From a virus, in UHGV virus genome UHGV-0019118: a DNA stretch of 31,495 nucleotides; one strand, 5' to 3'. Both the position numbers and the translations under genes were made by a program. This document shows, in pieces, positions 2,142-29,816 of the stretch. How positions within the stretch are numbered: the stretch's first letter is position 1; the number at the start of each line of letters is the position of its first letter. The notes below the pieces were generated by a model, which was given only the letters and a program-made list of their open reading frames with translations, ran no database searches and was not told the DNA's origin.

Positions 2142-4583
2142 TTAGTCATGGCCCATACTGGCACGCTGACGCGCACGCTTTTCACGCTCAATCTGTTCGA
2201 GCGTATCGCGTAACTGTCTGTCAAGCTGATGCCCCGGTGCAACACCTCCCGGCAGAGTGATGTTGTATTCACTTTTACTCTGGTCAATGTAAGAGTGTCC
2301 CGCCGGTGCGGTAACTGGCTGGTAAGCCTGATAGCCTCCATATGTGCTGGTTGCCGGGATGTAGGAATTACCCTGCGTGGCGGCGTTGGTTTTGGCGGCA
2401 GTCTGGTCGAGGCTGTCCGATTCTTTGTTGATGATGCCGAGTTTTTCGAGAAGCCAGTCGACACCGCTGCGCAGCTTGTTAAAAACATTGAGCGGAGCCA
2501 TCAAGGCAGAGGCCAGTGCCTGACCAAATATGACGCCGACATTTTTGCAGCTATCGAGCGTCTCCTGCGTGGCCTTGACCGGCGCAATCAGGTCTTTAAA
2601 CCATTGCCAGACGCCGCGCAGTTTCTCACCGAGTCCGTCAAAAATGGGCGCCAATGGAGCAAACATTTCCCCGACCGGTGCAAAGGCACTCATGATGCCC
2701 TCAATCACCCCCGAGAAAAATGCGCTGATGGGCTCCCAATATTTGCGGATGAGTAGCGCCCCGGCCACAATCGCCGCACCGACGGCCACAATCGGCCAGG
2801 TAATCGCACCGAGCGCTGTCACAATGGCACTACCAGCAACAGTAAAGACCGTACCCAACACGCCAGCAGCGGCGATAATGGCGTTAATCCCCATGACAAC
2901 CGGCCACGCAACGAGACCAATGCCGCCGATGATACCAATCAGAGCAAGTGCGCCACCGGCAATAATGCCGATAGTTGTCGCCAGACCTTTGTTTTTCTGG
3001 ATCCAGCCGTCGAGCTTTAACACATATTGTGTGGCTGTTTGGGTGAGTTTACGCAGCGAGCCCTCTTGCTGGTCAAAAAGGTCGGTACCGACTGCCTCAT
3101 AAGCCGACTGGAACTCTTTAAAGTCGCCGCCGAGGTTATCCTGCATAACCTTAACCAGTTCCTCGGTTTTACCGTCCGAGGCTTTAAACGCGGCAGTGAG
3201 CCTGTCAAGTTTGCCGCTTGAGGCTGCTTCCATCAGCACCGCCGCCGCCGAGCTGGCCTCCTCGCCGAAAATGGTTTTCATGTACTCGCCGCGCTGGCTT
3301 GTCCCGAGGTTGTTTTTCTCAAAGCTGCGCTGCATTTCTTTCAGGATGGAGAATATCGGGCGCGTGTTCCCCTTGCTGTCGGACGTTTTGACGCCGAGTT
3401 CCTTAATGGCCTCAAACGCTTTTCCGGTGGGAGCCTGCAGGCGGCTGAGAATGGCGCGGCTACCGGTACCCGCCATTGACCCGGTGATTTTGGCGTCGTG
3501 CAGCGCACCGACCATTGCGGCGGTTTGCTCGATGCTCACCCCGGCATTTTTCGCCACTGGCGCGGCATAGGTCAGCGCGTCGCTCAGTCCGTCAAAATCG
3601 GCGGCGGTTTTGTTCATTGTCATCGAGAGAACGTCGCCAATGTGAGCAATCTTGTCGTTTGAAAGTTGAAACGCTGATTTCATCCCGGTCAGCAGCGCCG
3701 CGTTTTCCTCCATTGAGCGCCGGTTTGACAGCGCCATATTCAGCGTGACTGGCGTCGCCGCCTGAATGGTAGCAGCGTCACCGCCGCTTTTCGCAATGAT
3801 GATTTGCGCGCTCGCTGCGTCATCTGCAGAGGCTGCAGTATTGTCGCCGAGCTGACGAGCCTGTTTGCGTAGTGCCTGCATTTCTGGCGACTGCTTATCG
3901 ACCCCGAGCACGGCCTGCAGTTCGGAATTTTTCTGCGCAAAGTCATAACCGGGCATCAGTAATTTAACCCCGGCCATCGTTCCCGCTGTCGCGATACCGA
4001 CCCCGGCAGCACCGGCTGCGGCCATGTTACCGGCAAGCTCTTTCCCTGACTTATATCTCTCTTTCACCCGGCTTAATTTCGCCTGCTGCGCACTGACGCG
4101 TGCCAGTGCCTCGCGCTGGCGGTTAAGCTGCGCCGTCGTTTCGCTGATGGAGGTTTTTAGCCGACGCTCTTCGGCAGACAGGGTGCGGGTATTAATACCG
4201 GCCTGCATCAGCTCGGAGCGCTGGCGCTGTACTGACGTTCTCAGGCTGTTGTATTTCGTCTGCAGCTCAGAGGCGGCACGCTTTGCCGCTTCGAGTGCCT
4301 GAGCCTGTGCGCGGGTCGGACTGGTGGTGTTTTTAAACTGTACGGCCAACTCACCAGCTTCGCGTTTCGCCTTATCAAGCGCCTGACTGGTCACGGCCAG
4401 TTGCGCGCTTGCCTTACGAAAGCCGTCGATTTTCGACGCCTGACCATTCAGGTCACGCAGCCCTTTTTGTGTGTCGCGAATATCACCCGAGAGGGTTTTA
4501 CTCGCGGTCTGGATGGATTTAAGCGGTCGGGTCGCCTGGTCGACCGCTTTCAGCAATACCTCAAGCCTCAGGTTATTACTCAT
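2142..4583 (-). CDS. T: Tail tape measure protein
   Basis: 813 aa, coiled-coil N-terminus and Gly/Ala-rich hydrophobic central segment, position between E/E' and U. Confidence 0.85.
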   Translation of the reverse strand: MSNNLRLEVLLKAVDQATRPLKSIQTASKTLSGDIRDTQKGLRDLNGQASKIDGFRKASAQLAVTSQALDKAKREAGELAVQFKNTTSPTRAQAQALEAAKRAASELQTKYNSLRTSVQRQRSELMQAGINTRTLSAEERRLKTSISETTAQLNRQREALARVSAQQAKLSRVKERYKSGKELAGNMAAAGAAGVGIATAGTMAGVKLLMPGYDFAQKNSELQAVLGVDKQSPEMQALRKQARQLGDNTAASADDAASAQIIIAKSGGDAATIQAATPVTLNMALSNRRSMEENAALLTGMKSAFQLSNDKIAHIGDVLSMTMNKTAADFDGLSDALTYAAPVAKNAGVSIEQTAAMVGALHDAKITGSMAGTGSRAILSRLQAPTGKAFEAIKELGVKTSDSKGNTRPIFSILKEMQRSFEKNNLGTSQRGEYMKTIFGEEASSAAAVLMEAASSGKLDRLTAAFKASDGKTEELVKVMQDNLGGDFKEFQSAYEAVGTDLFDQQEGSLRKLTQTATQYVLKLDGWIQKNKGLATTIGIIAGGALALIGIIGGIGLVAWPVVMGINAIIAAAGVLGTVFTVAGSAIVTALGAITWPIVAVGAAIVAGALLIRKYWEPISAFFSGVIEGIMSAFAPVGEMFAPLAPIFDGLGEKLRGVWQWFKDLIAPVKATQETLDSCKNVGVIFGQALASALMAPLNVFNKLRSGVDWLLEKLGIINKESDSLDQTAAKTNAATQGNSYIPATSTYGGYQAYQPVTAPAGHSYIDQSKSEYNITLPGGVAPGHQLDRQLRDTLEQIEREKRARQRASMGHD

Positions 4584-5063
4584 TGTTGTTTCCGCTACGC
4601 TGCAGCGCCTTTTCGCGCCATGTGATGAGCTCGGTCAGGCTCAGGGAATAGAGCTCTGATGGCGGCCAGTGGAATATCACCGCGATATCCGCCATCAGGT
4701 CATCGGTCGACAGGTCGGGCGGGAAGTCTACTCCGCCGAAGCCGGTGACAAAAAACCAATCACCTTAGCGGCCAGCGACAGCATATCGGGCAGGTTCATC
4801 GCGGTTAGCTCCTGCGTGGTGAGCGCGGGGTAGGTCATGCGGGGCAGGACTTTAATCAGCGCATCGACCTCAGACTGCGCCACCGCCGCCAGACTGACAC
4901 CGCGCAGGGTACCGGCGTTCGGCTCAATCAGGGTGACTTTATCAATCGTCTGACCGGCGCGCTTAATCGGCTTGTCGAGGGTCACGACGTTCGGGTTTAC
5001 GGTGTCAATTTCATTGCCAGCCGTATCAACAAATTCAGCGGTTTTACGTGGTGCTTTTGCCAT
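4576..5063 (-). CDS. Tail assembly chaperone E+E' made by programmed -1 ribosomal frameshift
   Basis: Slippery heptamer T TTT TTG in the E frame at 4749-4755; the -1 frame is open for 57 further codons (VTGFGGVDFPPDLSTDDLMADIAV...RSGNNNE) and stops at 4576-4578, overlapping the T start codon. Confidence 0.65.
4728..5063 (-). CDS. E: Tail assembly chaperone E
   Basis: 111 aa immediately downstream of FII; ends IGFLSPASAE with a slippery heptamer near its 3' end. Confidence 0.75.
   Translation of the reverse strand: MAKAPRKTAEFVDTAGNEIDTVNPNVVTLDKPIKRAGQTIDKVTLIEPNAGTLRGVSLAAVAQSEVDALIKVLPRMTYPALTTQELTAMNLPDMLSLAAKVIGFLSPASAE
4749..4755 (-). other. -1 frameshift slippery site (TTTTTTG) for E/E+E'
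   Basis: Heptamer is in the X XXY YYZ register relative to the E reading frame. Confidence 0.65.
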
Positions 5064-5126
5064 GATGTTTTTCTCTGCTCTGAATGGAGATTAATAACCG
5101 GCCAGCAGTGCTGACCGGTCAGGGAA

Positions 5127-5645
5127 TTACAGCCCGATTGCGCGGCGGTGCTGTTCCAGACGGTCGACGCCGTTCACCTTCTCGACCATGTTGACGGTGT
5201 CGATTTCGATGACGTCGCTACCATCAATCGTCAGGCGGTAATAGGTGCAAACGGTCGACAGTTTGGTCGAGGTGTTTTCACCCTGCTTATTTTCGCCGCC
5301 GTCGATTTCTTTGTGACGGCCACGCATGACCACCTCGACCGCGATGACTTCGCCGGTGTCGTCGCGCTGGTAGGATCCAGCAAAACGCAGCGGCACGGCG
5401 TCAGCACCCGGCGCTGCATATTGCGCCCATAGCGCCACATCAGGCAGACCACCGACAGACCATTCGACGGTGAGCGCATCATCGTCGAGACCGAGGTCAA
5501 TCGGTGCCGCACCATTCATGCCGCCGCCGCGATAGTTTTCGAGCTTGCGGGTCAGCTTCGGCAGCGTCACGGATTCAACAACGCCCATGTAGCTCAGGCC
5601 GTCATTGAACATGTTCAGATATTTGAGTTTGCGGGGTAGTGCCAT
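5127..5645 (-). CDS. FII: Tail tube protein FII
   Basis: 172 aa, same length as P2 FII, downstream of the sheath gene. Confidence 0.85.
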   Translation of the reverse strand: MALPRKLKYLNMFNDGLSYMGVVESVTLPKLTRKLENYRGGGMNGAAPIDLGLDDDALTVEWSVGGLPDVALWAQYAAPGADAVPLRFAGSYQRDDTGEVIAVEVVMRGRHKEIDGGENKQGENTSTKLSTVCTYYRLTIDGSDVIEIDTVNMVEKVNGVDRLEQHRRAIGL

Positions 5646-5660
5646 GTTATTTCAGGCTCC

Positions 5661-6848
5661 TTAGCTGTTGACCGATTCGGCCAGATTCACCAGATATTTA
5701 TCGGTGATGCGCTGGCGCAGGGTCAGGCTTTCCAGTGGTGGAACCGGCGTATAGTCGTAGTCGATATACAGTTTCCCGGCCTTGAGGGTTTCCTTATCGT
5801 TCGATTCCTCGTCGAACCAGCATTCACCGTCCACGATGTAGCCGTTAGATTTCAGCTCGCGGAATTTGGCGTTGATGCCATCGACAATGTCGCGGATGAG
5901 CGATGCGGTGATGGGCTTATCGACCGCCCACATGTGCGCCTCGGCCATCGTATCGGCCAGCACCTGCGCGGTGCGGGTGTAGTTCTCAAACAGGAAAAGC
6001 GGGTCATCAGAGCAGGTGCGGTTACCCCAGAAGCGGAAACCATCCTTACGCACCAGCGTAGTGACCCCGGCCTCGTTGAGCAGGTCAGCATCGGTGCCGG
6101 ATGCCTGCAAATCCCAAAAAACTGAGGCGCTGATGCCGGTGACACCCTGCACGCCAACGTTAGACAGGGTTTTGTGCCAGCCGACAGTCTGGTCGATGTA
6201 GGCACGCAGGCCGAGTGCGCGCGCAGTGGCGTAGGCCGTCGCGGTGGCGTTCGCGGTAGTGTCCCATGCGAGGAAGTCAGGCCAGATAACCATCAGCTCG
6301 CGCTGGCTGAAATTGTCTCGGTATTTGATGGCGTCTGAAATGGTTTTACAGCCCCATGCGCTGACATAACCAAACGCGCGCAGACTGATACAGACCGACG
6401 CGAGCGCGGTTGCGACTTCCTGCGTATCGAGACCCGGCACGCCGAGAATACGCGGCTTAACACCAGTGACCGCTTCGGCAGTCAACAGCGCCTTGATACC
6501 GGTGTATTTACCGTTCTCATCCGTGCCGCCGATGATGTTAGAAATGGTCTGCGCCTGAGCTGCATCCGGGTCATCGTCGACACCTTCGGCAACGCGCACG
6601 ACAACGGTGACGGGTTTTGACTGGTCGGCGATAGCCTGCAGGGATGCGGCCAGCGTGCCTTTTTTACCGGCTTTCGCAATGGCGCTCTGCACATTGGTAA
6701 TCAGTACCGGCTCATTGAGGGGGAATGTTTCGGCATCCGCATCGCTGGCCGTGCAGACCATGCCAACGATTGCGGTTGCTACAGTGGAAATGACGCGGGT
6801 GCCGTCGTTAATCTCAAGCACCTGTACGCCGTGGTGAAAATCACTCAT
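5661..6848 (-). CDS. FI: Contractile tail sheath protein FI
   Basis: 395 aa, first gene of the FI operon, size as P2 FI. Confidence 0.85.
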   Translation of the reverse strand: MSDFHHGVQVLEINDGTRVISTVATAIVGMVCTASDADAETFPLNEPVLITNVQSAIAKAGKKGTLAASLQAIADQSKPVTVVVRVAEGVDDDPDAAQAQTISNIIGGTDENGKYTGIKALLTAEAVTGVKPRILGVPGLDTQEVATALASVCISLRAFGYVSAWGCKTISDAIKYRDNFSQRELMVIWPDFLAWDTTANATATAYATARALGLRAYIDQTVGWHKTLSNVGVQGVTGISASVFWDLQASGTDADLLNEAGVTTLVRKDGFRFWGNRTCSDDPLFLFENYTRTAQVLADTMAEAHMWAVDKPITASLIRDIVDGINAKFRELKSNGYIVDGECWFDEESNDKETLKAGKLYIDYDYTPVPPLESLTLRQRITDKYLVNLAESVNS

Positions 6849-6979
6849 CCGGTTAACTCCGTGGTTAGTGGGCGAGTGTTATTGTCCTGGCTGGTCTGGT
6901 GAGGAGCTATTTGTCGGCGATGGGTAGCGGATGACACATAAACAAATCATAAAAAAGACGGGCATCAGCCCGCCTCGCA

Positions 6980-7576
6980 TTACTCCGGTTTAACCGGCCA
7001 CTCGATATCCGGTGCCGTGGAGGTATCGACCGCGTTCAGTGCCTGAATGTATTTCATCCACGCAATCAGGCTGGCCTTGTCATCGTCGCTGATGATGCCG
7101 AGCTGCAGCTCAGTCTGCCACAGGCTGATTGCGCTTTGCGCTTCGGCCAGCATTGAGGCTTTTTTCTGCTCAGCTTCCAGTACCTGCCCCCGCTGCAACG
7201 CATTTTCATCCGTTACCCATTCGCTACCATTCCACTCGTCATAAGGTGTTGTTGGTGCAATGGTGGTCACATTATCAGGATAGTCACCCGGCCTCGTCAC
7301 CTTTACAGTTTGTCCGGTTTGCGTATCAAAAACCAGTTCGCCCCGGTGGTCTACAACATATTCCCATCCAGCCTGACCAGTCATTCGACAAATAGCAAAA
7401 CCGTCTTTTCCATCCGGTGGGGCATCCGTACAGGAGTGCGCGGGAAGCCCAACGCCTACAGCAAGAAACTCAACCGTCGCGGATAAATATTCTCCGGTAT
7501 CACCATCAAAGTTAAAAACCGTAATATCGCCAGCTTTAGTGGCAATCATGTTTTTGTTTAACGTTGCCTTTGCCAT
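6980..7576 (-). CDS. G: Tail fibre assembly protein (chaperone)
   Basis: 198 aa directly downstream of and overlapping the tail fibre gene by 1 bp. Confidence 0.65.
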   Translation of the reverse strand: MAKATLNKNMIATKAGDITVFNFDGDTGEYLSATVEFLAVGVGLPAHSCTDAPPDGKDGFAICRMTGQAGWEYVVDHRGELVFDTQTGQTVKVTRPGDYPDNVTTIAPTTPYDEWNGSEWVTDENALQRGQVLEAEQKKASMLAEAQSAISLWQTELQLGIISDDDKASLIAWMKYIQALNAVDTSTAPDIEWPVKPE

Positions 7577-8715
7577 TATGCAGCCCTTACGATGAAGTTG
7601 AACGCGATGTTACGTGAGCGGGTTTCTGCAGCAGTCTTAGGCGTGTTTAAGCCCGGATTGTGCCACCCTGTACTTGCTTTATAGGTACGCAAAAATGAAT
7701 ATTGCGCCTCTGAAGTACCAGCCAGCCCGCCATTGTTACCCACAGGTTTACCATCAGCACGAAGGTATATTTTTGATTGAGTGTAATCATCCCATTGCCC
7801 GTTGCTGGTTTCCTTCCCGATGTATCGCATCCCATCAGAGAAAGCCGCATAGATATCACGCTCAGTGCTACCCTGTTCTACACCTGCATAGCCTTGGTTG
7901 GTTGGCATTTCCAGAGCATGGTCTTCAAAAGCAAATCCCTGAGCGCTCAACAGAGCACGCCCTGCATCCACGCCACGCCCGTCATCCCAGCCACGCAGAA
8001 ACTCACCGCGCAAATCAGGCAGATTACCGGAAGGATAAGCAACGGCCAGCTTTGGATATTTCGCCTTGTCAAAAGCCGCACCGTTGCATTTTAGCCAGCC
8101 GTCGGGCGGCGTTGCCTGCGGCCACGGCAGCGGAAAGCCAACCGGAATATATTTATCAATATCCGCCGTTTTGAGGTACTGAGCGTGCGGGTCAGCAGCG
8201 GCGAGGTGTGCGGCCATCAGACTATCGGCATAGGCTTTCACCTCGATAACCTTGTCGTCGACATACTGGCGCGTTGCCAGCACGACTGCCGGGTCGATTT
8301 TCAGGGTGATTGCCGAGGTGCTCGACACAATCAGAATCATGCGAATGGTCTGCGTGCGACCGCTCCCCTCCTGCAGTTGCGGCTTGTAGGTCTCCGGGCA
8401 GTTCGCCACGGCAATCAGGATGCCGTCGTCATCGTAGAGACCAATCTCTCGGATCCAGAAACCTCCCTCATTCTCGGGAATAATCTGTTCTGCGATAATC
8501 TGGCTGGTATTGTCCGGGTCAACGGTCAGCAGGTTCAGCGGCGCGATGCGCTTCTGGTTGATGAGCTTCGTCTGCGCCGGGTCTGGGGTCGGCAACGTAC
8601 CATTCGCGTCACCGACCGCCATCTGCGTCAGGTTCAGCTTAGTACCGAGTGCCGCCGCGTTCGCCAGCCGTGCCGCGCCCTGATTGGTCAGAATGGCAAA
8701 ATATTTTGCGGTCAT
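7576..8715 (-). CDS. H: Tail fibre protein H (short form)
   Basis: N-terminal ~170 aa (KYFAILTNQGAARLANA...GGFWIREIGLYDDDGILIAVAN...YVDDK) resembles the P2 gpH N-terminus; only 379 aa in total. Confidence 0.75.
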   Translation of the reverse strand: MTAKYFAILTNQGAARLANAAALGTKLNLTQMAVGDANGTLPTPDPAQTKLINQKRIAPLNLLTVDPDNTSQIIAEQIIPENEGGFWIREIGLYDDDGILIAVANCPETYKPQLQEGSGRTQTIRMILIVSSTSAITLKIDPAVVLATRQYVDDKVIEVKAYADSLMAAHLAAADPHAQYLKTADIDKYIPVGFPLPWPQATPPDGWLKCNGAAFDKAKYPKLAVAYPSGNLPDLRGEFLRGWDDGRGVDAGRALLSAQGFAFEDHALEMPTNQGYAGVEQGSTERDIYAAFSDGMRYIGKETSNGQWDDYTQSKIYLRADGKPVGNNGGLAGTSEAQYSFLRTYKASTGWHNPGLNTPKTAAETRSRNIAFNFIVRAA

Positions 8716-11213: not shown

Positions 11214-11401
11214 GTAGCAAGAATGACGCAGTTAAAGCTATGGGGCTACCGAGGGAAAATTGTTCAGCAATGGGACAACAAACATCGAGGTCTAGACCTT
11301 AAAAAAATAGCCTTGTTCTAGATCGCCCTTCCAATTACACTTGATTTAATCTCGACAGAGATGGAATTCTAAATGGCTAGCTTATAATTCAGGATTGAAA
11401 A

Positions 11402-12265
11402 ATGGAAGAATCTAAAAGAATACGCCAATTAAAAGAAAACCTCATAAAGGAACTACCTTTCTTTCCAAATGAAAAATCAATACGCACTGAACTAGAAAAT
11501 CAAAGTTTAAATGGGGTTTTAATCGCTTACCTCCACTGGAAAACAAGAATTGTGCCGACCCGCAGAAGGAGAGTTCATATATATCCAGAGGTAACGAGCG
11601 ATAAAAGATGGAAAGAACTAAAACTTGGTATTCATGGGTTACTGGATAAGGTCAGAAAAGGTGAAGACTTATACCCTCATCTTTCATTGCGCGCACATAA
11701 GTATGGCTACACTCCTGTTGAAAGAATTCGTAATGGAGATGCTGATTCATGGGAAGACAAAGATCAGTTATTAAATACGAAAGGTTTTCATCATTTTCAT
11801 TTGAGCATGAATATTCAAAGTACAGGCTTGGCCGAAAGGACAAATAATGTTCTTTTTGCCTTCGTTTCTCGCGACCAGTTTCATGCTGTGGGGATATTTG
11901 ATCATAGTGTATTTGATAAACCCGATAGTTTAAATGGCATGACTGAGGAACGTGAAAGAATGTGGACCCTGCATGAAAAATACATCACATTCGGAATGAA
12001 AGCTGGCACAGTGTATATAAACAATCTGATAACAGCATCCGGGCATCCTGTAAATCTTATCATGCTCGCCGATCGTTATGCTGCAATCATCCGAGAATAT
12101 GACCAGAAGGCGGAAGACAGAATTTTTGTAAATGAGCTTTATGCTCAAAGCCCACTTCCCTCTCCAGAAAGGTTTAAATTTGAGTGGCGCATAGAGGGTT
12201 TGGATCTTGTTCTTTTTGATAAAAAAAACAGAGTGGCCTTTAACGTCTACAAAGCTCACATTTAA
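11402..12265 (+). CDS. Hypothetical protein, AT-rich cargo gene (moron) between V and S
   Basis: 287-aa ORF on the strand opposite to all flanking late genes; visibly AT-rich; AGGA 7 nt upstream of ATG; TATAAT at about 11383-11388; strong hairpin directly downstream. Confidence 0.6.
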   Translation: MEESKRIRQLKENLIKELPFFPNEKSIRTELENQSLNGVLIAYLHWKTRIVPTRRRRVHIYPEVTSDKRWKELKLGIHGLLDKVRKGEDLYPHLSLRAHKYGYTPVERIRNGDADSWEDKDQLLNTKGFHHFHLSMNIQSTGLAERTNNVLFAFVSRDQFHAVGIFDHSVFDKPDSLNGMTEERERMWTLHEKYITFGMKAGTVYINNLITASGHPVNLIMLADRYAAIIREYDQKAEDRIFVNELYAQSPLPSPERFKFEWRIEGLDLVLFDKKNRVAFNVYKAHI

Positions 12266-18092: not shown

Positions 18093-18257
18093 TGTCAGGA
18101 GTCCTGAGGTTGGGGTTACTGGTCAACGCCAGTTTCCAGACTCCAGGCACACGAGACCACTAACGACGGCTGGGTAATCTCCCACACAACAGCACCTTAG
18201 CGAATCACTGACGGCCATTAAGTAGCCTTGCCCTGAATCCACTACGGCGAGGTATCA
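18093..18257. promoter_or_regulatory. Divergent late promoter region between O and P
   Basis: 165-bp intergenic spacer between divergent operons at the position of the P2 late promoters; no motif was mapped. Confidence 0.4.
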
Positions 18258-20027
18258 ATGACCATTTCCACCGATACAACCTTGTTGCATGACCCGCGAC
18301 GGCAGGCATCGCTGCTTTACTGGCAGGGTTTTTCCGTGCCACAGATTGCCGAAATGCTGCAGGTCAAGCGCCCGACCGTGCAGAGCTGGAAGCAGCGCGA
18401 CGGCTGGGACGGCATCGCGCCGATTTCCCGCGTTGAAAGCAGCCTTGAGGCCAGGCTGATTCAGCTCATCGCCAAGCCGCAAAAGACAGGGGGGGATTTC
18501 AAAGAGATTGACCTGCTCGGACGGCAGATTGAACGGTTGGCGCGAGTCAACCGCTACAGCCAGACCGGCAACGAAGCCGACCTTAACCCCAACGTCGCCA
18601 ACCGCAACAAAGGGGAGCGCAAAAAGCCGAAAAAGAATTTTTTCAGCGACGAGGCTATCGATAAACTAGAGGAATTATTTTTCGACCAGTCTTTCGAGTA
18701 CCAGTTGCAGTGGTACCGCGCAGGACTGGAGCACCGTATTCGTGACATTCTCAAATCCCGCCAGATTGGCGCGACATTCTATTTCTCCCGCGAGGCACTG
18801 CTGCGCGCACTCAAAACCGGCCATAACCAGATATTTTTATCAGCCAGTAAAACGCAGGCTTACGTGTTCCGCGAATACATCATCCAGTTTGCGCGACTGG
18901 TCGACGTTGACCTGACTGGCGACCCGATTGTCATCGGTAACAACGGCGCAAAACTGATTTTTCTCGGTACCAATTCCAACACCGCGCAGAGCCATAACGG
19001 CGATCTGTATGTCGATGAAATATTCTGGATCCCGAATTTTCAGAAACTGCGCAAAGTCGCCTCGGGCATGGCCTCGCAAAAGCACCTGCGCTCGACCTAT
19101 TTTTCGACACCTTCCACGCTGGCGCACGGCGCTTACCCCTTCTGGTCTGGCGAGCTGTTCAACAAGGGGCGCAGCCGGATTGCCGACCGCATCGAAATCG
19201 ACATCAGTCACAGCGCGCTCGCCGGTGGCCAGCTCTGCGACGATGGCCAGTGGCGGCAGATTGTCACCATTGAGGACGCCCTTGCGGGTGGCTGCACCCT
19301 GTTCGACCTCGACCAGCTCAAACGCGAAAACAGTGATGAGGACTTTAAGAACCTGTTTATGTGCGAGTTTGTCGACGATAAAGCGTCGGTATTCCCGTTC
19401 GAGGAGCTGCAGCGCTGCATGGTCGATGTGATGGAGGAATGGGAGGACTTTGCCCCGTTCGCCGACCATCCGTTCGGCTCTCGTCCTGTCTGGATTGGCT
19501 ACGACCCGTCACACACCGGCGACAGTGCCGGGTGCGTCGTGCTCGCGCCGCCGGTGGTCTCTGGTGGCAAGTTCCGCATGCTGGAGCGCCACCAGTGGAA
19601 AGGCATGGACTTTGCCGCGCAGGCCGAGGGCATACGCAAACTGACCGAGAAATACAACGTCGAATACATCGGCATAGACGCAACCGGCCTCGGTCTCGGC
19701 GTGTTCCAGTTGGTGCGCTCATTCTACCCGGCGGCACGCGGCATCCGTTACACACCTGAGATGAAAACCGCGATGGTGCTCAAGGCAAAAGACACCATTC
19801 GCCGCGGCTGTCTGGAGTACGACGCCGGGGCGACCGACGTCACGCAGTCGTTTATGTCCATCCGCAAAACCATGACCAGCAGCGGGCGCAGCGCCACCTA
19901 CGAGGCCAGCCGCACCGAGGAAGCCAGTCACGCCGATATCGCATGGGCGACCATGCACGCCCTGTTAAACGAACCGCTTTCCGCCGGTAGCGGCATGCAG
20001 CCTAAATCCATTCTGGAGTTTAATTAA
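18258..20027 (+). CDS. P: Terminase large (ATPase) subunit P
   Basis: 589 aa; N-terminus MTISTDTTLLHDPRRQASLLYWQGFSVPQIAEMLQVKRPTVQSWKQRDGWD resembles P2 gpP. Confidence 0.9.
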   Translation: MTISTDTTLLHDPRRQASLLYWQGFSVPQIAEMLQVKRPTVQSWKQRDGWDGIAPISRVESSLEARLIQLIAKPQKTGGDFKEIDLLGRQIERLARVNRYSQTGNEADLNPNVANRNKGERKKPKKNFFSDEAIDKLEELFFDQSFEYQLQWYRAGLEHRIRDILKSRQIGATFYFSREALLRALKTGHNQIFLSASKTQAYVFREYIIQFARLVDVDLTGDPIVIGNNGAKLIFLGTNSNTAQSHNGDLYVDEIFWIPNFQKLRKVASGMASQKHLRSTYFSTPSTLAHGAYPFWSGELFNKGRSRIADRIEIDISHSALAGGQLCDDGQWRQIVTIEDALAGGCTLFDLDQLKRENSDEDFKNLFMCEFVDDKASVFPFEELQRCMVDVMEEWEDFAPFADHPFGSRPVWIGYDPSHTGDSAGCVVLAPPVVSGGKFRMLERHQWKGMDFAAQAEGIRKLTEKYNVEYIGIDATGLGLGVFQLVRSFYPAARGIRYTPEMKTAMVLKAKDTIRRGCLEYDAGATDVTQSFMSIRKTMTSSGRSATYEASRTEEASHADIAWATMHALLNEPLSAGSGMQPKSILEFN

Positions 20028-20773
20028 TGAAAAATAACGTTTTCTCACAAAGCCAGATTCAGGCAATGGCCGATATTCTGCACAATGACAGCTTTGACTA
20101 TCAGTCAACATGGTTGCGTGTCGGGAAACTCAATATCGACCGCAGCATCACCAAATCGCGCCAGACTGGCGCAACGCAGCTCTTTAGCCGTGAGGCGCTG
20201 CTTGATGCGCTGACAACGGGCGATAACCAGGTCTGGTTTGCTCACACCGTTGAGCATGCGCGGGTGGCGCTGATGTACATGCATAACCTTTCGGCGCGCG
20301 TCGGTGTCAGCCTTACGAGCAACGGCCACAGCCTGCAGCTCGACGACGGTGCGGTTATCAGCTTTGTCGGTGAGGAATCCCATTGCGCCGCGCTGGCGGG
20401 TAACGTCTACCTTGATGAGTTCGGATGGTTCAGTAACCCGCTAAGAGCGGCAAAAGTCGCGGCGGCTATCGCCTGCCATAAACGCCACAATCTGACGATG
20501 TTCACCTCGCCCTCTGATAATTATGACGCATTCCGGGTGTGGAACGGCACGTTCCGCAATCACCGACCGTCACCGCTAATTAATACCGGCGACAGCGTAT
20601 TTTGCACAGATGGTGTCTGGCGTCAGTCGGTCACTCTGGATGCAGCATGCCAGCGTGGATGCAATCTTTTTGCACCTGAGGAAATTAAACGCGAATACAG
20701 CGACGATAATTATCGTCTGCTGTTTGGCTGCGACTGGTCTTTCGCTGTTGCAGCGGGTGAGGTGGCAGCATGA
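20027..20773 (+). CDS. Paralogue of the terminase large subunit covering only its central ATPase region
   Basis: 248 aa; aligns by eye to P residues about 125-372 (KSRQTGATQLFSREALLDALTTGDNQ vs KSRQIGATFYFSREALLRALKTGHNQ; VYLDEFGWFSNP vs LYVDEIFWIPNF; DGVWRQSVTLDAA..GCNLF vs DGQWRQIVTIEDA..GCTLF); start overlaps the P stop (TAATG) and stop overlaps the Q start (ATGA). Confidence 0.6.
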   Translation: MKNNVFSQSQIQAMADILHNDSFDYQSTWLRVGKLNIDRSITKSRQTGATQLFSREALLDALTTGDNQVWFAHTVEHARVALMYMHNLSARVGVSLTSNGHSLQLDDGAVISFVGEESHCAALAGNVYLDEFGWFSNPLRAAKVAAAIACHKRHNLTMFTSPSDNYDAFRVWNGTFRNHRPSPLINTGDSVFCTDGVWRQSVTLDAACQRGCNLFAPEEIKREYSDDNYRLLFGCDWSFAVAAGEVAA

Positions 20774-21792
20774 GCAAGCGCAAGCCACGCAAAACAGTCG
20801 CCACGACCGCCAGCGCCCCGCAAAAAATGGAGGCGTTCACCTTCGGCGAGCCGGTGCCGGTGCTCGACAAGCGCGACATTCTGGATTACGTCGAGTGCAT
20901 CAGTAACGGCAAATGGTACGAGCCGCCGGTCAGCTTCTCCGGGCTGGCAAAGAGCCTGCGCTCTGCTGTACATCACAGCTCACCGATTTACGTTAAGCGC
21001 AACGTGCTCGCGAGCACCTACATTCCGCACCCGCTGTTATCCCGTCAGGATTTCAGCCGCTTTGCACTCGACTATCTTGTTTTTGGTAACGCCTTTCTTG
21101 AGCAGCGCCACAGCGTTACCGGCCAGCTAATCAAGCTACTGGCCTCACCGGCCAAATACACCCGGCGCGGGGTCGACGATTCGATTTTCTGGTTTGTGGA
21201 AAACTTCACTCTACCGCATGAGTTCGCGCCTGATACCGTGTTTCACCTGCTGGAGCCCGATATTAATCAGGAAATTTACGGCCTGCCCGAATATCTCAGC
21301 GCGCTTAATTCCGCCTGGCTGAATGAATCCGCGACGCTGTTCCGCCGCAAGTATTACCAGAACGGCGCGCACGCGGGTTACATCATGTATGTGACCGACC
21401 CGGCGCAAAGTGCGACCGACGTCGAATCGCTGCGCGAGGCGATGCGCAATTCGAAAGGTCTCGGCAACTTTAAGAACCTGTTTTTCTACGCCCCCGGCGG
21501 AAAACCGGACGGCATCAAAATCGTGCCACTGAGCGAGGTCGCTACAAAGGATGACTTTTTCAACATCAAGAAAGCCAGTGCCGCCGACCTGATGGACGCA
21601 CACCGCGTACCGTTCCAGCTCATGGGCGGCAAGCCCGAGAATATCGGCTCACTCGGCGACGTTGAGAAGGTGGCAAAGGTATTCGTGCGTAACGAGCTGT
21701 CACCCCTGCAGGACAGGTTCAGGGAGGTAAACGACTGGCTCGGCATGGAGGTCATCAGGTTCAAAGAGTACACCCTCGACAACCCGGAATAA
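20770..21792 (+). CDS. Q: Portal protein Q
   Basis: 340 aa, MSKRKPRKT... N-terminus, last gene before cos as in P2. Confidence 0.85.
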   Translation: MSKRKPRKTVATTASAPQKMEAFTFGEPVPVLDKRDILDYVECISNGKWYEPPVSFSGLAKSLRSAVHHSSPIYVKRNVLASTYIPHPLLSRQDFSRFALDYLVFGNAFLEQRHSVTGQLIKLLASPAKYTRRGVDDSIFWFVENFTLPHEFAPDTVFHLLEPDINQEIYGLPEYLSALNSAWLNESATLFRRKYYQNGAHAGYIMYVTDPAQSATDVESLREAMRNSKGLGNFKNLFFYAPGGKPDGIKIVPLSEVATKDDFFNIKKASAADLMDAHRVPFQLMGGKPENIGSLGDVEKVAKVFVRNELSPLQDRFREVNDWLGMEVIRFKEYTLDNPE

Positions 21793-21799
21793 CCCCCTC

Positions 21800-21823
21800 A
21801 AGCCGCCATTATGGCGGCTTTTA
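21800..21823. terminator. Hairpin terminator downstream of Q
   Basis: Inverted repeat agccgccat t atggcggct followed by TTTT. Confidence 0.5.
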
Positions 21824-21839
21824 CATACAAAACTTAAAC

Positions 21840-23075
21840 TTAGGCTTTGCTATTTATCATTCTGATATAACTAGGCATGCGAGGATCTGAAATTTTATAT
21901 ACCCCTCTGGCAGCCTTTGTAAGGATCGCTCCTTTATCAGCCCTAGTAAAACGCCCAATATAGTTACTCATGTGATAGTTACTCAATAAAACCCCCGTAT
22001 CTTCTCGAATTTGGGCAATCCATTCTTGAATGGTAAATTTATTATCTTTGAATTTTGCTGCTGCATAAAGTATTGATGGATAAATATCAGTTCTGGATGA
22101 AGTAACTGCGTTCTCATAGTCTCTTTTAAGTTGTCCCTCGGTGTTTATTACAGCTCGCTTCAAAGCTTCAGGAAGAATGTCGGAATTTACTTCGCTTTTA
22201 CCAGATGATAAAGCTATATCTGCAGATTCCTTTCCTATAAGATGTGTAAAATATGGAAAACCATTGCTAATTTCAACTATAGAGTTTTTAACTTCACGAC
22301 TAAATGTTATACCCAAGCCATGCTCGCCAGTCTCAATTATTTCATGTAAATATTTATCTTCAATTCGAGAGAGTTGAATTTCATGGAGGCATCTGTTCAC
22401 AGAAGGATGACCTGCTATCAACGAAGCACCGTCACTGGAAATGCCAACTAACAAAATCTTCAAAGGACTATTGGAATCACTAAGTTGTTTAACAAATTCA
22501 GCGACATCATGCTTAACGTCATCACTGACAACATCAAATTCATCTATTAAAAGTATTGCATTCAATTCTTCAAGCGCAAAACAGGCTTTACTTGGAGTAA
22601 GGTCTTCTTTTTCTATCGTGATTTTCTCTTCGGCAGAAACGTCCGCTCTAAATAATTTCAAAACATTAAGCCCAATACCTGCTTTTTTGGTAGTCTCTCT
22701 TTTATTTGCGGCATATTCACTATCAATAAATATAGCTGGCCTTGCAATTATATCTTTGAATTTTGTTTTTTTATCACATCGCACTACAAAAATGTTACTA
22801 GGTAACACACCTTCATTTTTCCCTCCCTCTAAAGTAGATAAGGCGAGCGAGCTTTTCCCAATCCCTCTCTCTCCATAAATCATGCAATGCTTACCATCAG
22901 TAGTTAAGGTGTCGAGGATATGTTCCACCTCGTTATCACGCCCTTTCAAATGGGTAGGTGCCTCAATAGGTTTAGACGGTGTAAAATATAAATCAACATT
23001 TTTAATTTTATTTTTTTTGGCTTTAAAATTACTGAATATGCTGCTGGTAGTTGTCATTTCCGCATCCCATTGCAA
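21840..23075 (-). CDS. Predicted P-loop NTPase (AAA-type ATPase with uncharacterised C-terminal half); AT-rich cargo gene between Q and cos
   Basis: Walker A GERGIGKSSLA and Walker B ILLIDEFDVV; track start is TTG at 23075, more likely ATG at 23055-23057; candidate promoter TTGCAC-N17-TTTAAT just upstream. Confidence 0.65.
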   Translation of the reverse strand: MQWDAEMTTTSSIFSNFKAKKNKIKNVDLYFTPSKPIEAPTHLKGRDNEVEHILDTLTTDGKHCMIYGERGIGKSSLALSTLEGGKNEGVLPSNIFVVRCDKKTKFKDIIARPAIFIDSEYAANKRETTKKAGIGLNVLKLFRADVSAEEKITIEKEDLTPSKACFALEELNAILLIDEFDVVSDDVKHDVAEFVKQLSDSNSPLKILLVGISSDGASLIAGHPSVNRCLHEIQLSRIEDKYLHEIIETGEHGLGITFSREVKNSIVEISNGFPYFTHLIGKESADIALSSGKSEVNSDILPEALKRAVINTEGQLKRDYENAVTSSRTDIYPSILYAAAKFKDNKFTIQEWIAQIREDTGVLLSNYHMSNYIGRFTRADKGAILTKAARGVYKISDPRMPSYIRMINSKA

Positions 23076-28976: not shown

Positions 28977-29816
28977 ATGAATGATGAAGATTTGAATACG
29001 CAAGATGTGATTGAGCGGATTAGTTCGGCGTATGGTGTCAGCACGCAAAAGGCTTTGGCGGAAGTGCTTGGCGTCCCGTCAAACAGCGTCAGCACTTGGG
29101 TTCAGCGAAACAGTTTTCCAGGCAAAGCCATCATTCAGTGCTCATTAGATACTGGCGCCGATTTAAACTGGCTGCTGACTGGTCAAATTTCAAATTTGAA
29201 TTTGCAAGATTCATCGCCATTGAAAGGAAAGTCACTTTATGACGAGATTTTGGCGAGTGGTGGTAAACCTGTTTTAAGACGCATCCTTGATGCGTATGGT
29301 TTTACAATGCAAAAGGAGCTTGGAGATTTGTTGGATATCTCCTCAGGCACTATCAGCACTTGGGTAAGACGAGATTTCTTCCCCGGTGATGTAGTAGTTA
29401 CTTGTGCTCTTGATACCGGTGTTTCACTGGAATGGTTAGCAACCGGTAAAGGGCAAATGCGAACAAACAGGGAAGCTGTCACATCAGGTTTTTCAATTAA
29501 AAAATCCCGCCTTGAATCTGGTGAGCTTAAGGATGCTGGCGCATGGCACACAGACCCCTCGATGATACCCTCTGATTCAGATGAATTGATTTTTGTCGAA
29601 GGTGTGGGCTCCTCTTGGCTTGTCGACTGTTCGGCTTCGAACATAAGCAATGGGCGTTGGTTAATTGATATCGACGGCGCTCTTGATGTTTTTGATGTGA
29701 TTCGTCTTCCTGGAGGAAAAGTCAGGTTGTCTAATAAAACTGCTGAGTTTGAATGCAATATTTCAGATATCAAGCCTGTCGGGTCTGTAGTTCTTACATT
29801 GGAAAAACACGTATAA
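28977..29816 (+). CDS. cI: 186 CI-like immunity repressor with a duplicated N-terminal DNA-binding domain
   Basis: 279 aa; residues about 12-70 and 100-160 are clear copies of each other (…AYGVSTQKALAEVLGVPSNSVSTWVQRNSFPGKAIIQCSLDTGADLNWLLTGQ vs …AYGFTMQKELGDLLDISSGTISTWVRRDFFPGDVVVTCALDTGVSLEWLATGKGQ); divergent from apl and upstream of int. Confidence 0.75.
   Translation: MNDEDLNTQDVIERISSAYGVSTQKALAEVLGVPSNSVSTWVQRNSFPGKAIIQCSLDTGADLNWLLTGQISNLNLQDSSPLKGKSLYDEILASGGKPVLRRILDAYGFTMQKELGDLLDISSGTISTWVRRDFFPGDVVVTCALDTGVSLEWLATGKGQMRTNREAVTSGFSIKKSRLESGELKDAGAWHTDPSMIPSDSDELIFVEGVGSSWLVDCSASNISNGRWLIDIDGALDVFDVIRLPGGKVRLSNKTAEFECNISDIKPVGSVVLTLEKHV

Follow-up and report, generated by a model that had tools for sequence, protein, structure and literature searches.

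A stand-alone terminase ATPase-domain gene between the terminase and portal genes of a 186-like prophage and its relatives

In phage P2 itself the genes for the large terminase subunit, P, and for the portal protein, Q, are directly adjacent, as an earlier preliminary description of the DNA studied here had also stated. The GenBank record of coliphage 186 (U32222) has a further gene between the corresponding Orf12, the P homologue, and Orf2, the portal: gene W (AAC34147.1 / NP_052250.1; nt 1215-1961 of the record), which encodes 248 amino acids (aa) and is labelled 'W protein; similar to Orf12'. The same record annotates p12 ('B-dependent transcription of orf12 operon'), pV and a B protein binding site, and places a terminator, tW, after the portal gene. 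In phage PSP3, orf2/gp2 is annotated as 'similar to 186 W'. A full-text search of the literature, outside which two 186 mapping papers lie, returned no account of the function of 186 W or of the 'truncated terminase' genes of P2-like phages. Here we analyze the gene that occupies the same place in the virus genome UHGV-0019118, a stretch of 31,495 nucleotides (nt) to which we refer as the window, together with its relatives in other phages and prophages.

Identity, domain content and gene junctions of W

The 248-aa open reading frame (ORF) between P and Q of the window (20027-20773, + strand, ATG start) is by its sequence the orthologue of coliphage 186 gene W. Searched against translated phage genomes, its product is 94.6% identical in amino acids to 186 W over residues 1-239, and PSP3, EtG, Midge, SI22, SW9 and BIS20 carry the gene at 90-94% identity; compared with the PSP3 counterpart the identity is 90.3% over residues 1-248. 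The window as a whole is ~92% DNA-identical to 186 over most of its length, its P protein is 98.8% identical to that of 186 and 88.8% to that of P2, and its portal protein is 98.5% identical to the 186 portal. By these measures the window is a 186-like (Eganvirus) prophage. The ORF is no novelty of the window: it is already annotated as phage 186 W, 'similar to Orf12', so that both the gene and the similarity are a rediscovery of what has stood on a GenBank record since the 1990s.

W is a paralogue of P that retains only its ATPase domain. A BLASTP comparison aligns W residues 2-237 with P residues 125-371 at 36% identity and 54% positives (E = 4e-43); the start of W is the equivalent of P residue 125 and its end that of P residue ~380. 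Pfam recognizes three regions in P, the Terminase_5 helix-turn-helix (HTH; 8.6e-27), Terminase_6N (6.3e-60) and the Terminase_6C nuclease (1.6e-44). In W it recognizes Terminase_6N (PF03237) only, with E = 3.6e-19 and 69.7 bits (cut-off 22) over profile positions 2-200 of 215, and neither the Terminase_5 HTH nor the Terminase_6C nuclease is matched. We infer that W would be unable to cut DNA, or to recognize cos or the small subunit M as P does. Among protein families, W matches PHROG 3746, 'terminase large subunit', with E = 1e-120; NCBIfam has no named family for it, and a sequence search of the PDB with a W profile gave no match at E ≤ 0.01.

The nucleotide-binding motifs of P are retained in W. 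Among 23 W-family sequences, F23, Q26 and W29 of the adenine-binding Q-motif (F23-x-Y-Q26-x-x-W29) are invariant, as are K43, R45, Q46, G48 and A49 of the deviant Walker A motif or P-loop, K43-S-R-Q-T-G-A-T50 (20153-20176, +), E131 of the segment N126-V-Y-L-D130-E131 that holds Walker B and the catalytic glutamate (20402-20419, +), and S163 of the coupling (C) motif T160-S-P-S163 (20504-20515, +), which aligns with STPS of P. The window protein is the only one of the 23 to have T at position 47 in place of I. In the same alignment FSREALL is the helix after Walker A, and the DGxWRQxVT block is also conserved. W looks like a competent nucleotide-binding domain and probably binds ATP-Mg, motif retention being the ground on which we would ascribe ATP binding or hydrolysis to it.

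The predicted fold points the same way. With an alignment of 70 sequences, used instead of a shallow W-only alignment that gave a predicted local distance difference test score (pLDDT) of 58, AlphaFold2 returns a model of W with pLDDT 89.9 and a predicted template modelling score (pTM) of 0.90. In a Foldseek search the top PDB match of this model is the ATPase domain of T4 gp17 (2O0H; E = 3e-8, template modelling score 0.68), and the next are the ATPase domains of the large terminases (TerL) of D6E, P74-26, PhiV-1 and Sf6. The preliminary description had read the ORF as homologous to the middle of P, without the N-terminal ~125 aa and the nuclease half but with conserved blocks, and had proposed to check the key ATPase residues and an AlphaFold model. 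The homology, the missing ends and the blocks KSRQxGAT, FSREALL, YxDE and DGxWRQxVT are all borne out, and both checks turned out in its favour.

The same holds for the position of the ORF exactly between its neighbours and for its coupling within the P-Q late operon. P (589 aa; 18258-20027, +) is the homologue of 186 Orf12 and P2 gpP, and Q (340 aa; 20770-21792, +; Pfam Phage_portal) that of 186 Orf2 and P2 gpQ. The P stop and the W start overlap in TAATG at 20025-20029, and the W stop TGA and the Q start overlap in ATGA at 20770-20773, which implies that W would be translationally coupled to both neighbours and would thus be made when and where the terminase and portal are made. As read from the letters, a GGAG Shine-Dalgarno of W (20015-20018, +) lies 8 nt 5' of its ATG within the final codons of P, and a GAGGTG Shine-Dalgarno of Q (20759-20764, +) lies 5 nt 5' of the Q ATG within the final codons of W (...G-E-V...). 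This 'GEV' tail is kept in W proteins that precede Q and missing from the family in which W comes after Q. The same GGAG stands before the portal start in relatives without W.

On the upstream side of P, a divergent late promoter region (18093-18257, without an assigned strand) matches the B-activated p12, pV and the B-binding site of phage 186 and is 95% identical to 186 nt 3730-3895. Just past the portal stop, the operon terminator GCCGCCA-TTA-TGGCGGC, then TTTT (21802-21822, +), aligns with the annotated 186 tW, of which the hairpin is conserved. From this conservation with 186, W is predicted to be transcribed with P and the portal gene from the B/Ogr-dependent late promoter. A scan for internal promoters and terminators gave no more hits than in shuffled sequence, and none at the W junctions. 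The G+C content is 0.544 for W, 0.576 for P and 0.568 for Q, and at third codon positions (GC3) it is somewhat lower in W (0.61 vs 0.73).

Selection, spread and active-site variation

To describe the selection on W we use the ratio of nonsynonymous to synonymous substitution rates (dN/dS) in pairwise comparisons of the window, 186 and PSP3. This ratio is ~0.14 for W, 0.03-0.06 for P and 0.03-0.05 for Q, i.e., 2-7 times higher in W than in P and Q, with comparable dS values in the three genes. Purifying selection acts on W, but less strictly than on P and Q, and a ratio of 0.14 at the same dS as P and Q argues that W has been inherited together with them and is functional. At greater distances W evolves about twofold faster, as the identities of the window to a Hafnia prophage show, which are 70.5% for the P ATPase domain and 73% for Q, but 51% for W.

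W is 36-42% identical to every P protein tested, including those of HP1 and phiCTX, and being equally far from all of them it is not a recent copy of the neighbouring P. In our trees, which are neighbour-joining trees from simple distances with 70-73% support at key nodes, the W proteins group together (100% support) and lie apart from every P protein (93%). The duplicate is thus old, as had been proposed. It had also been proposed that W is a maintained duplicate with the G+C content of the backbone rather than recent cargo, of which the first part stands, given the low dN/dS, and the second holds only in part, given its faster evolution and the existence of W-less phages with near-identical flanks.

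The 245-254-aa W family extends over Escherichia, Salmonella, Edwardsiella, Enterobacter, Hafnia, Pectobacterium, Yersinia and Erwinia with identities down to 43%. More than 25 protein clusters hold to this length, one of them with 553 member sequences. The order P-W-Q is found in Hafnia, Pectobacterium and Yersinia. When 1.84 billion representative proteins were searched with a profile, 505 matched, and among the best 150 of these are ~40 short proteins (222-285 aa) that are matched end to end and are interleaved with full-length P proteins. With a W-type profile, 80 loci are found in IMG/VR, ~70 of them with the short gene in P-w-Q order and overlaps of 1 or 4 nt. Single short relatives used as IMG/VR queries returned ordinary full-length P only (P0044 and P0047) or nothing (P0056). 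A second W type has 241 aa; 21 E. coli genomes carry it, as do the phages vB_YpM_MLG42 and 500465-1.

Two individual genomes may be mentioned beside this survey. E. coli ARL09/232 (NZ_CP049967.1) has two P2-like prophages, at ~4.27 Mb and ~1.30 Mb, each with a different W type: one gene is of the 186 type (94.7% nt identity) and the other a relative of the 241-aa type (76.6% nt identity). In a Hafnia paralvei prophage (GCA_004309975.1; locus L006, 2229-4000) P is split into ORFs of 426 aa and 159 aa, probably by a frameshift or as a pseudogene; the W gene of this prophage is intact, and identical to the W of a relative (L007) that has an intact P.

The P-w-Q architecture is also found outside the Enterobacterales family, in prophages of Aeromonas and Vibrio cholerae (loci L152 of Aeromonas sp. 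CA23, 4184-7784, and L154 and L155 of V. cholerae, 4199-7831) and in Aeromonas phage phiO18P, where the gene is annotated as 'truncated terminase ATPase subunit'. These short proteins are closest to their own P, with 61% identity in Aeromonas and 63% in V. cholerae, and are 46% identical to each other and 31-37% identical to 186-type W. The neighbour-joining tree places them inside the HP1-type P clade (73% support). This pattern suggests either repeated duplication or gene conversion of the short genes by the neighbouring P. That the same architecture would have arisen, or been re-templated, more than once implies a selective benefit at the P/Q locus.

The 186-type W of the window keeps the canonical active-site residues, and so do nearly all of the longer homologues: among 87 long or mid-length proteins the Walker A Thr/Ser, the Walker B Asp and the catalytic Glu are kept, the exception being one mid-length protein without the Asp-Glu pair. 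A different combination is found in 18 short proteins, in which the Walker A Thr has become Asp (GAD) and the Walker B Asp has been lost in all 18 (to Ser, Gly, Ala or Pro), so that both Asp residues occur together in none. Specifically, the equivalent of D130 is G in the Yersinia clade and S, A or P in other relatives, always together with the change of the Walker A T50 to D. The GAD proteins include P0028-P0031, P0032, P0035, P0038, P0046, P0051, P0053, P0057, P0058, P0063, P0098, P0099 and P0118 (alignments A1 and A2). The swap, which is seen in none of the long terminases, may be a relocation of the carboxylate that coordinates Mg, and as such suggests that the Mg site was re-wired, not abolished. 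We do not claim it as independent covariation: the 18 cases may share a single event, and the IMG/VR set was selected on those motifs.

What W may do

The most economical reading of W is a putative modulation of packaging. Specifically, the hypothesis to which we incline, tentatively and at somewhat less than even confidence, is that the packaging machinery is the target of W, which would work on it in trans as an ATPase-domain subunit with an accessory or regulatory role, because W is co-expressed with the terminase and portal, has an intact ATPase fold, has neither nuclease nor HTH, and is optional. The constant coupling of W to P and Q also argues for a packaging-linked role. In such a scheme W would dock via the ATPase-domain surfaces that P subunits use for contact with each other or with the portal, and as a nuclease-less accessory or regulatory subunit it would tune the assembly or activity of the P motor or of the maturation complex.

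Several points weigh against a role of this kind. The contact between W and P, or between W and the portal, is itself a proposal. Natural phages can also do without W: it is missing from at least 17 plaque-forming 186-like phages, among them a dozen Y. pestis phages (vB_YpM_MHG/MDG series), SEN1, FSLSP004, PHB48 and RCIP0057, and in these isolates the 3' end of P and the 5' end of Q are 92-96% DNA-identical to the window. The Y. pestis phages are reported to have been isolated as lytic agents. The P protein of a W-less E. coli prophage differs from 186 P at only 5 of 589 residues (99.2% identical); its P stop overlaps the portal start directly (TAATG), and only the first ~25 portal codons differ. 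The gene is rare as well: 186-type W is present in 8 of 5426 complete E. coli genomes and the second type in 21, where the P/Q flanks match 1302. In another P2-like clade all 80 of 80 loci are without the short gene (a set from the P0047 IMG/VR scan, reused as a W-free control). W is thus an optional add-on to the packaging module and not a core part of it.

The remaining points concern the wider family. In ~15 other short relatives the Walker A Lys or the catalytic Glu is gone outright, so that hydrolysis is not required throughout the wider group. In one IMG/VR contig (L016, UViG_2929042913_000009) a W-like protein of 240 aa is encoded at 4986-5708 in the early operon after the replication gene A, where its gene overlaps a small ORF behind gene A and is convergent to the Ogr, portal and terminase genes. 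In two other loci (L010, 4001-4738, and L011, 2889-3626) the order is P-Q-W, next to a defence hotspot. The W of these two loci is 245 aa long and 55% identical to the window W, has no C-terminal 'GEV', and starts 22 nt past the portal gene behind a GGAG of its own; a terminator comes next, and AAA_15/AAA_21 hotspot genes lie beyond it. Neither a place in the early operon nor one behind Q beside the hotspot is expected of a pure motor subunit. Furthermore, the W tree is incongruent with the P tree at L010, which argues against tight co-evolution of W and P.

How W comes and goes can be seen from the flanks. The difference between phages with and without W consists of W itself and the first ~25 portal codons (window 20770-20850 compared with 3028-3130 of L005). 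The portal N-termini of the two kinds of phage are homologous but diverged, and become near-identical after 'AFTFGEP'. This suggests that W and the 5' end of the portal gene are exchanged as a cassette via flanking homology, rather than that W is simply deleted.

The rival that we take most seriously, although we consider it unlikely, is that W is a conflict gene, which mimics the terminase ATPase domain in an encounter of phage with host, phage with phage or phage with satellite. It could sequester or misdirect a factor aimed at the P ATPase domain, such as an Avs/Upx-type sensor, a satellite protein or a prophage inhibitor, or it could disturb the terminase of a competitor. Avs2, Avs3 and Upx directly target the ATPase domains of terminases, and a conflict would be in keeping with the patchy presence of W among phages with near-identical P and Q, with a dN/dS 2-7 times that of P and Q and a twofold protein divergence, with the occupation of this one junction by several unrelated 'alleles' in different P2-like genera, with relatives beside or within the cos-proximal hotspot and in the early operon, and with the re-wiring or loss of catalytic residues in many relatives. 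However, a 2026 preprint reports that the isolated terminase ATPase domain suffices to activate EcAvs2 and Upx (bioRxiv 10.64898/2026.04.30.721860), and that the T4 protein vs.8, which resembles such a domain, is toxic with EcAvs2. A free domain of this kind is then no less probable as a trigger than as a decoy, and W is more simply seen as an extra trigger. The earlier suggestion of a decoy for terminase-sensing immunity finds no direct support, and a simple decoy is unlikely. W is moreover expressed late, with P, in ~70 of the 80 loci, a late time for a protein directed against defences. If W poisoned foreign terminases, it would hit the phage's own as well, since W is as far from its own P as from others. 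PADLOC-DB 2.0 has no family that matches W at E ≤ 0.01. The hotspot itself counts on the side of a conflict role: Rousset et al. (2022) describe this cos-proximal site as a reservoir of anti-phage systems, and no defence system in their panel acted on 186cIts.

The remaining explanations are less probable still. The lettered genes of 186 are reportedly defined by conditional-lethal mutants, W by head-defective ones, and the name 'W protein' in the 186 record, the place of W in the operon of terminase and portal, and the purifying selection could all be taken to mean that W is required for head formation in 186-type phages. We consider this improbable, because natural W-less phages form plaques and because a P protein 99.2% identical to that of 186 is found in a prophage that lacks W. 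In addition, nonsense mutations of W should lower the translation of the portal gene through the ATGA coupling and operon polarity, so the lethality of amber alleles in W need not reflect the loss of W. That W is instead a functionless remnant of a partial tandem duplication of P, decaying in place, would account for its truncation at both ends, its rarity, its frequent loss and its faster evolution than P. It is very hard to reconcile with a dN/dS of 0.14, the absence of stops and frameshifts, a length of 245-254 aa held across eight genera at identities down to 43%, precise domain boundaries, a confident predicted fold and active-site residues that are invariant in the family, and we regard it as highly improbable. 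An annotation or sequencing artefact, the case that the preliminary description had named as its own refutation, is scarcely credible: P and Q are full length and match 186 and P2 end to end, the layout recurs in independent isolates and assemblies, and W is no mis-split part of either neighbour, as it repeats P 125-371, extends neither P nor Q, and has its own frame closed by TAA. A fusion of P and W by -1 frameshifting was rejected as well, since a TAA stands two codons before the ATG in the W frame and there is no slippery site.

Modulation of packaging is the reading that we tentatively retain for the 186-type gene. For the wider set, a more speculative view, rather unlikely but still worth stating, is that P2-like phages have repeatedly come up with separately encoded terminase ATPase domains at the terminase/portal junction, with no fewer than three origins or re-templating events (the Enterobacterales W clade, Aeromonas and Vibrio). 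In this view these optional and fast-evolving proteins, many of which have a re-wired Mg site or have lost catalytic residues, would make up an undescribed class of pseudo-subunits or mimics, with a regulatory or conflict-related task instead of the movement of DNA. Such proteins might shape what Avs2, Avs3 and Upx sense, or what satellites can hijack. The gene in the window by itself adds nothing new; the survey of an optional and recurrent architecture with a variable active site is a modest lead. What purpose is served by proteins that are optional, under selection, recurrent in distant P2-like phages and sometimes re-wired in their active site is a modestly interesting question, and W offers a convenient system for it: its model phage is tractable, and relatives naturally devoid of W can serve as controls when motor tuning is to be told from immune recognition.

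Other genes of the window and comparison with described systems

Three further genes of the window deserve a brief description. Right after the operon terminator, in the cos-proximal hotspot and at a place where the 186 sequence differs, lies a low-GC (0.38) cargo gene (21840-23075, -) for a 411-aa STAND/AAA ATPase (Pfam nSTAND1 1.5e-8 and AAA_22 5.8e-8), with a weak match to PADLOC PDC-S59 (9e-8), a candidate system. In the tail/lysis block a 287-aa ORF (11402-12265, +) stands on the strand opposite to its neighbours in a second low-GC island (0.375 at 11251-12000). It has no Pfam match and a weak match to PADLOC PD-T4-7 (2e-9), and is probably a moron or defence gene. The CI repressor ORF (28977-29816, +; 279 aa) matches Phage_CI_repr in two stretches and has an extra N-terminal Xre/YdaS-like HTH, which means either that the true start is internal or that the HTH is duplicated.

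We can finally place W among the systems that have been described. Its closest counterpart, 186 W, shares with it the position between P and Q, the overlaps, the promoter region and the terminator; it differs by few substitutions, including I47T of the window copy within Walker A, and past the terminator the cargo of the window is not that of 186. PSP3 orf2/gp2 and the second 'terminase' gene of EtG, Midge, SI22, SW9 and BIS20 are the same gene, with no difference of substance. The neighbouring gpP of P2, or 186 Orf12, shares with W the Q-motif, deviant Walker A, Walker B and C-motif of its central ATPase domain, but has in addition an HTH region of ~124 aa and an RNase H-like nuclease domain of ~215 aa, both of which are missing from W.

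The W-like proteins of group B (225-256 aa), found in vB_YenM_56.17, vB_YpM_MLG42, 500465-1 and many IMG/VR P2-like contigs, are in the same clade as 186-type W (70% support, neighbour-joining) and have the same P-w-Q placement, but their Walker A Thr is changed to Asp and their Walker B Asp to Gly, Ser, Ala or Pro, and most have lost the DGxWRQ segment. In phiO18P and its Aeromonas and V. cholerae relatives an ATPase-only protein of 253-259 aa is encoded between P and the portal with overlapping codons, as W is; this lineage is separate from 186-type W, and its Walker A is drifting, e.g., KAHQVGMS. The most distant comparison is with T4 vs.8 (bioRxiv 10.64898/2026.04.30.721860), likened to W here by description: like W it stands alone, resembles the ATPase domain of its own TerL, has Walker A and B and has no known function, but it belongs to another phage family, is not located beside the terminase or portal genes, and is reported to be toxic with EcAvs2.

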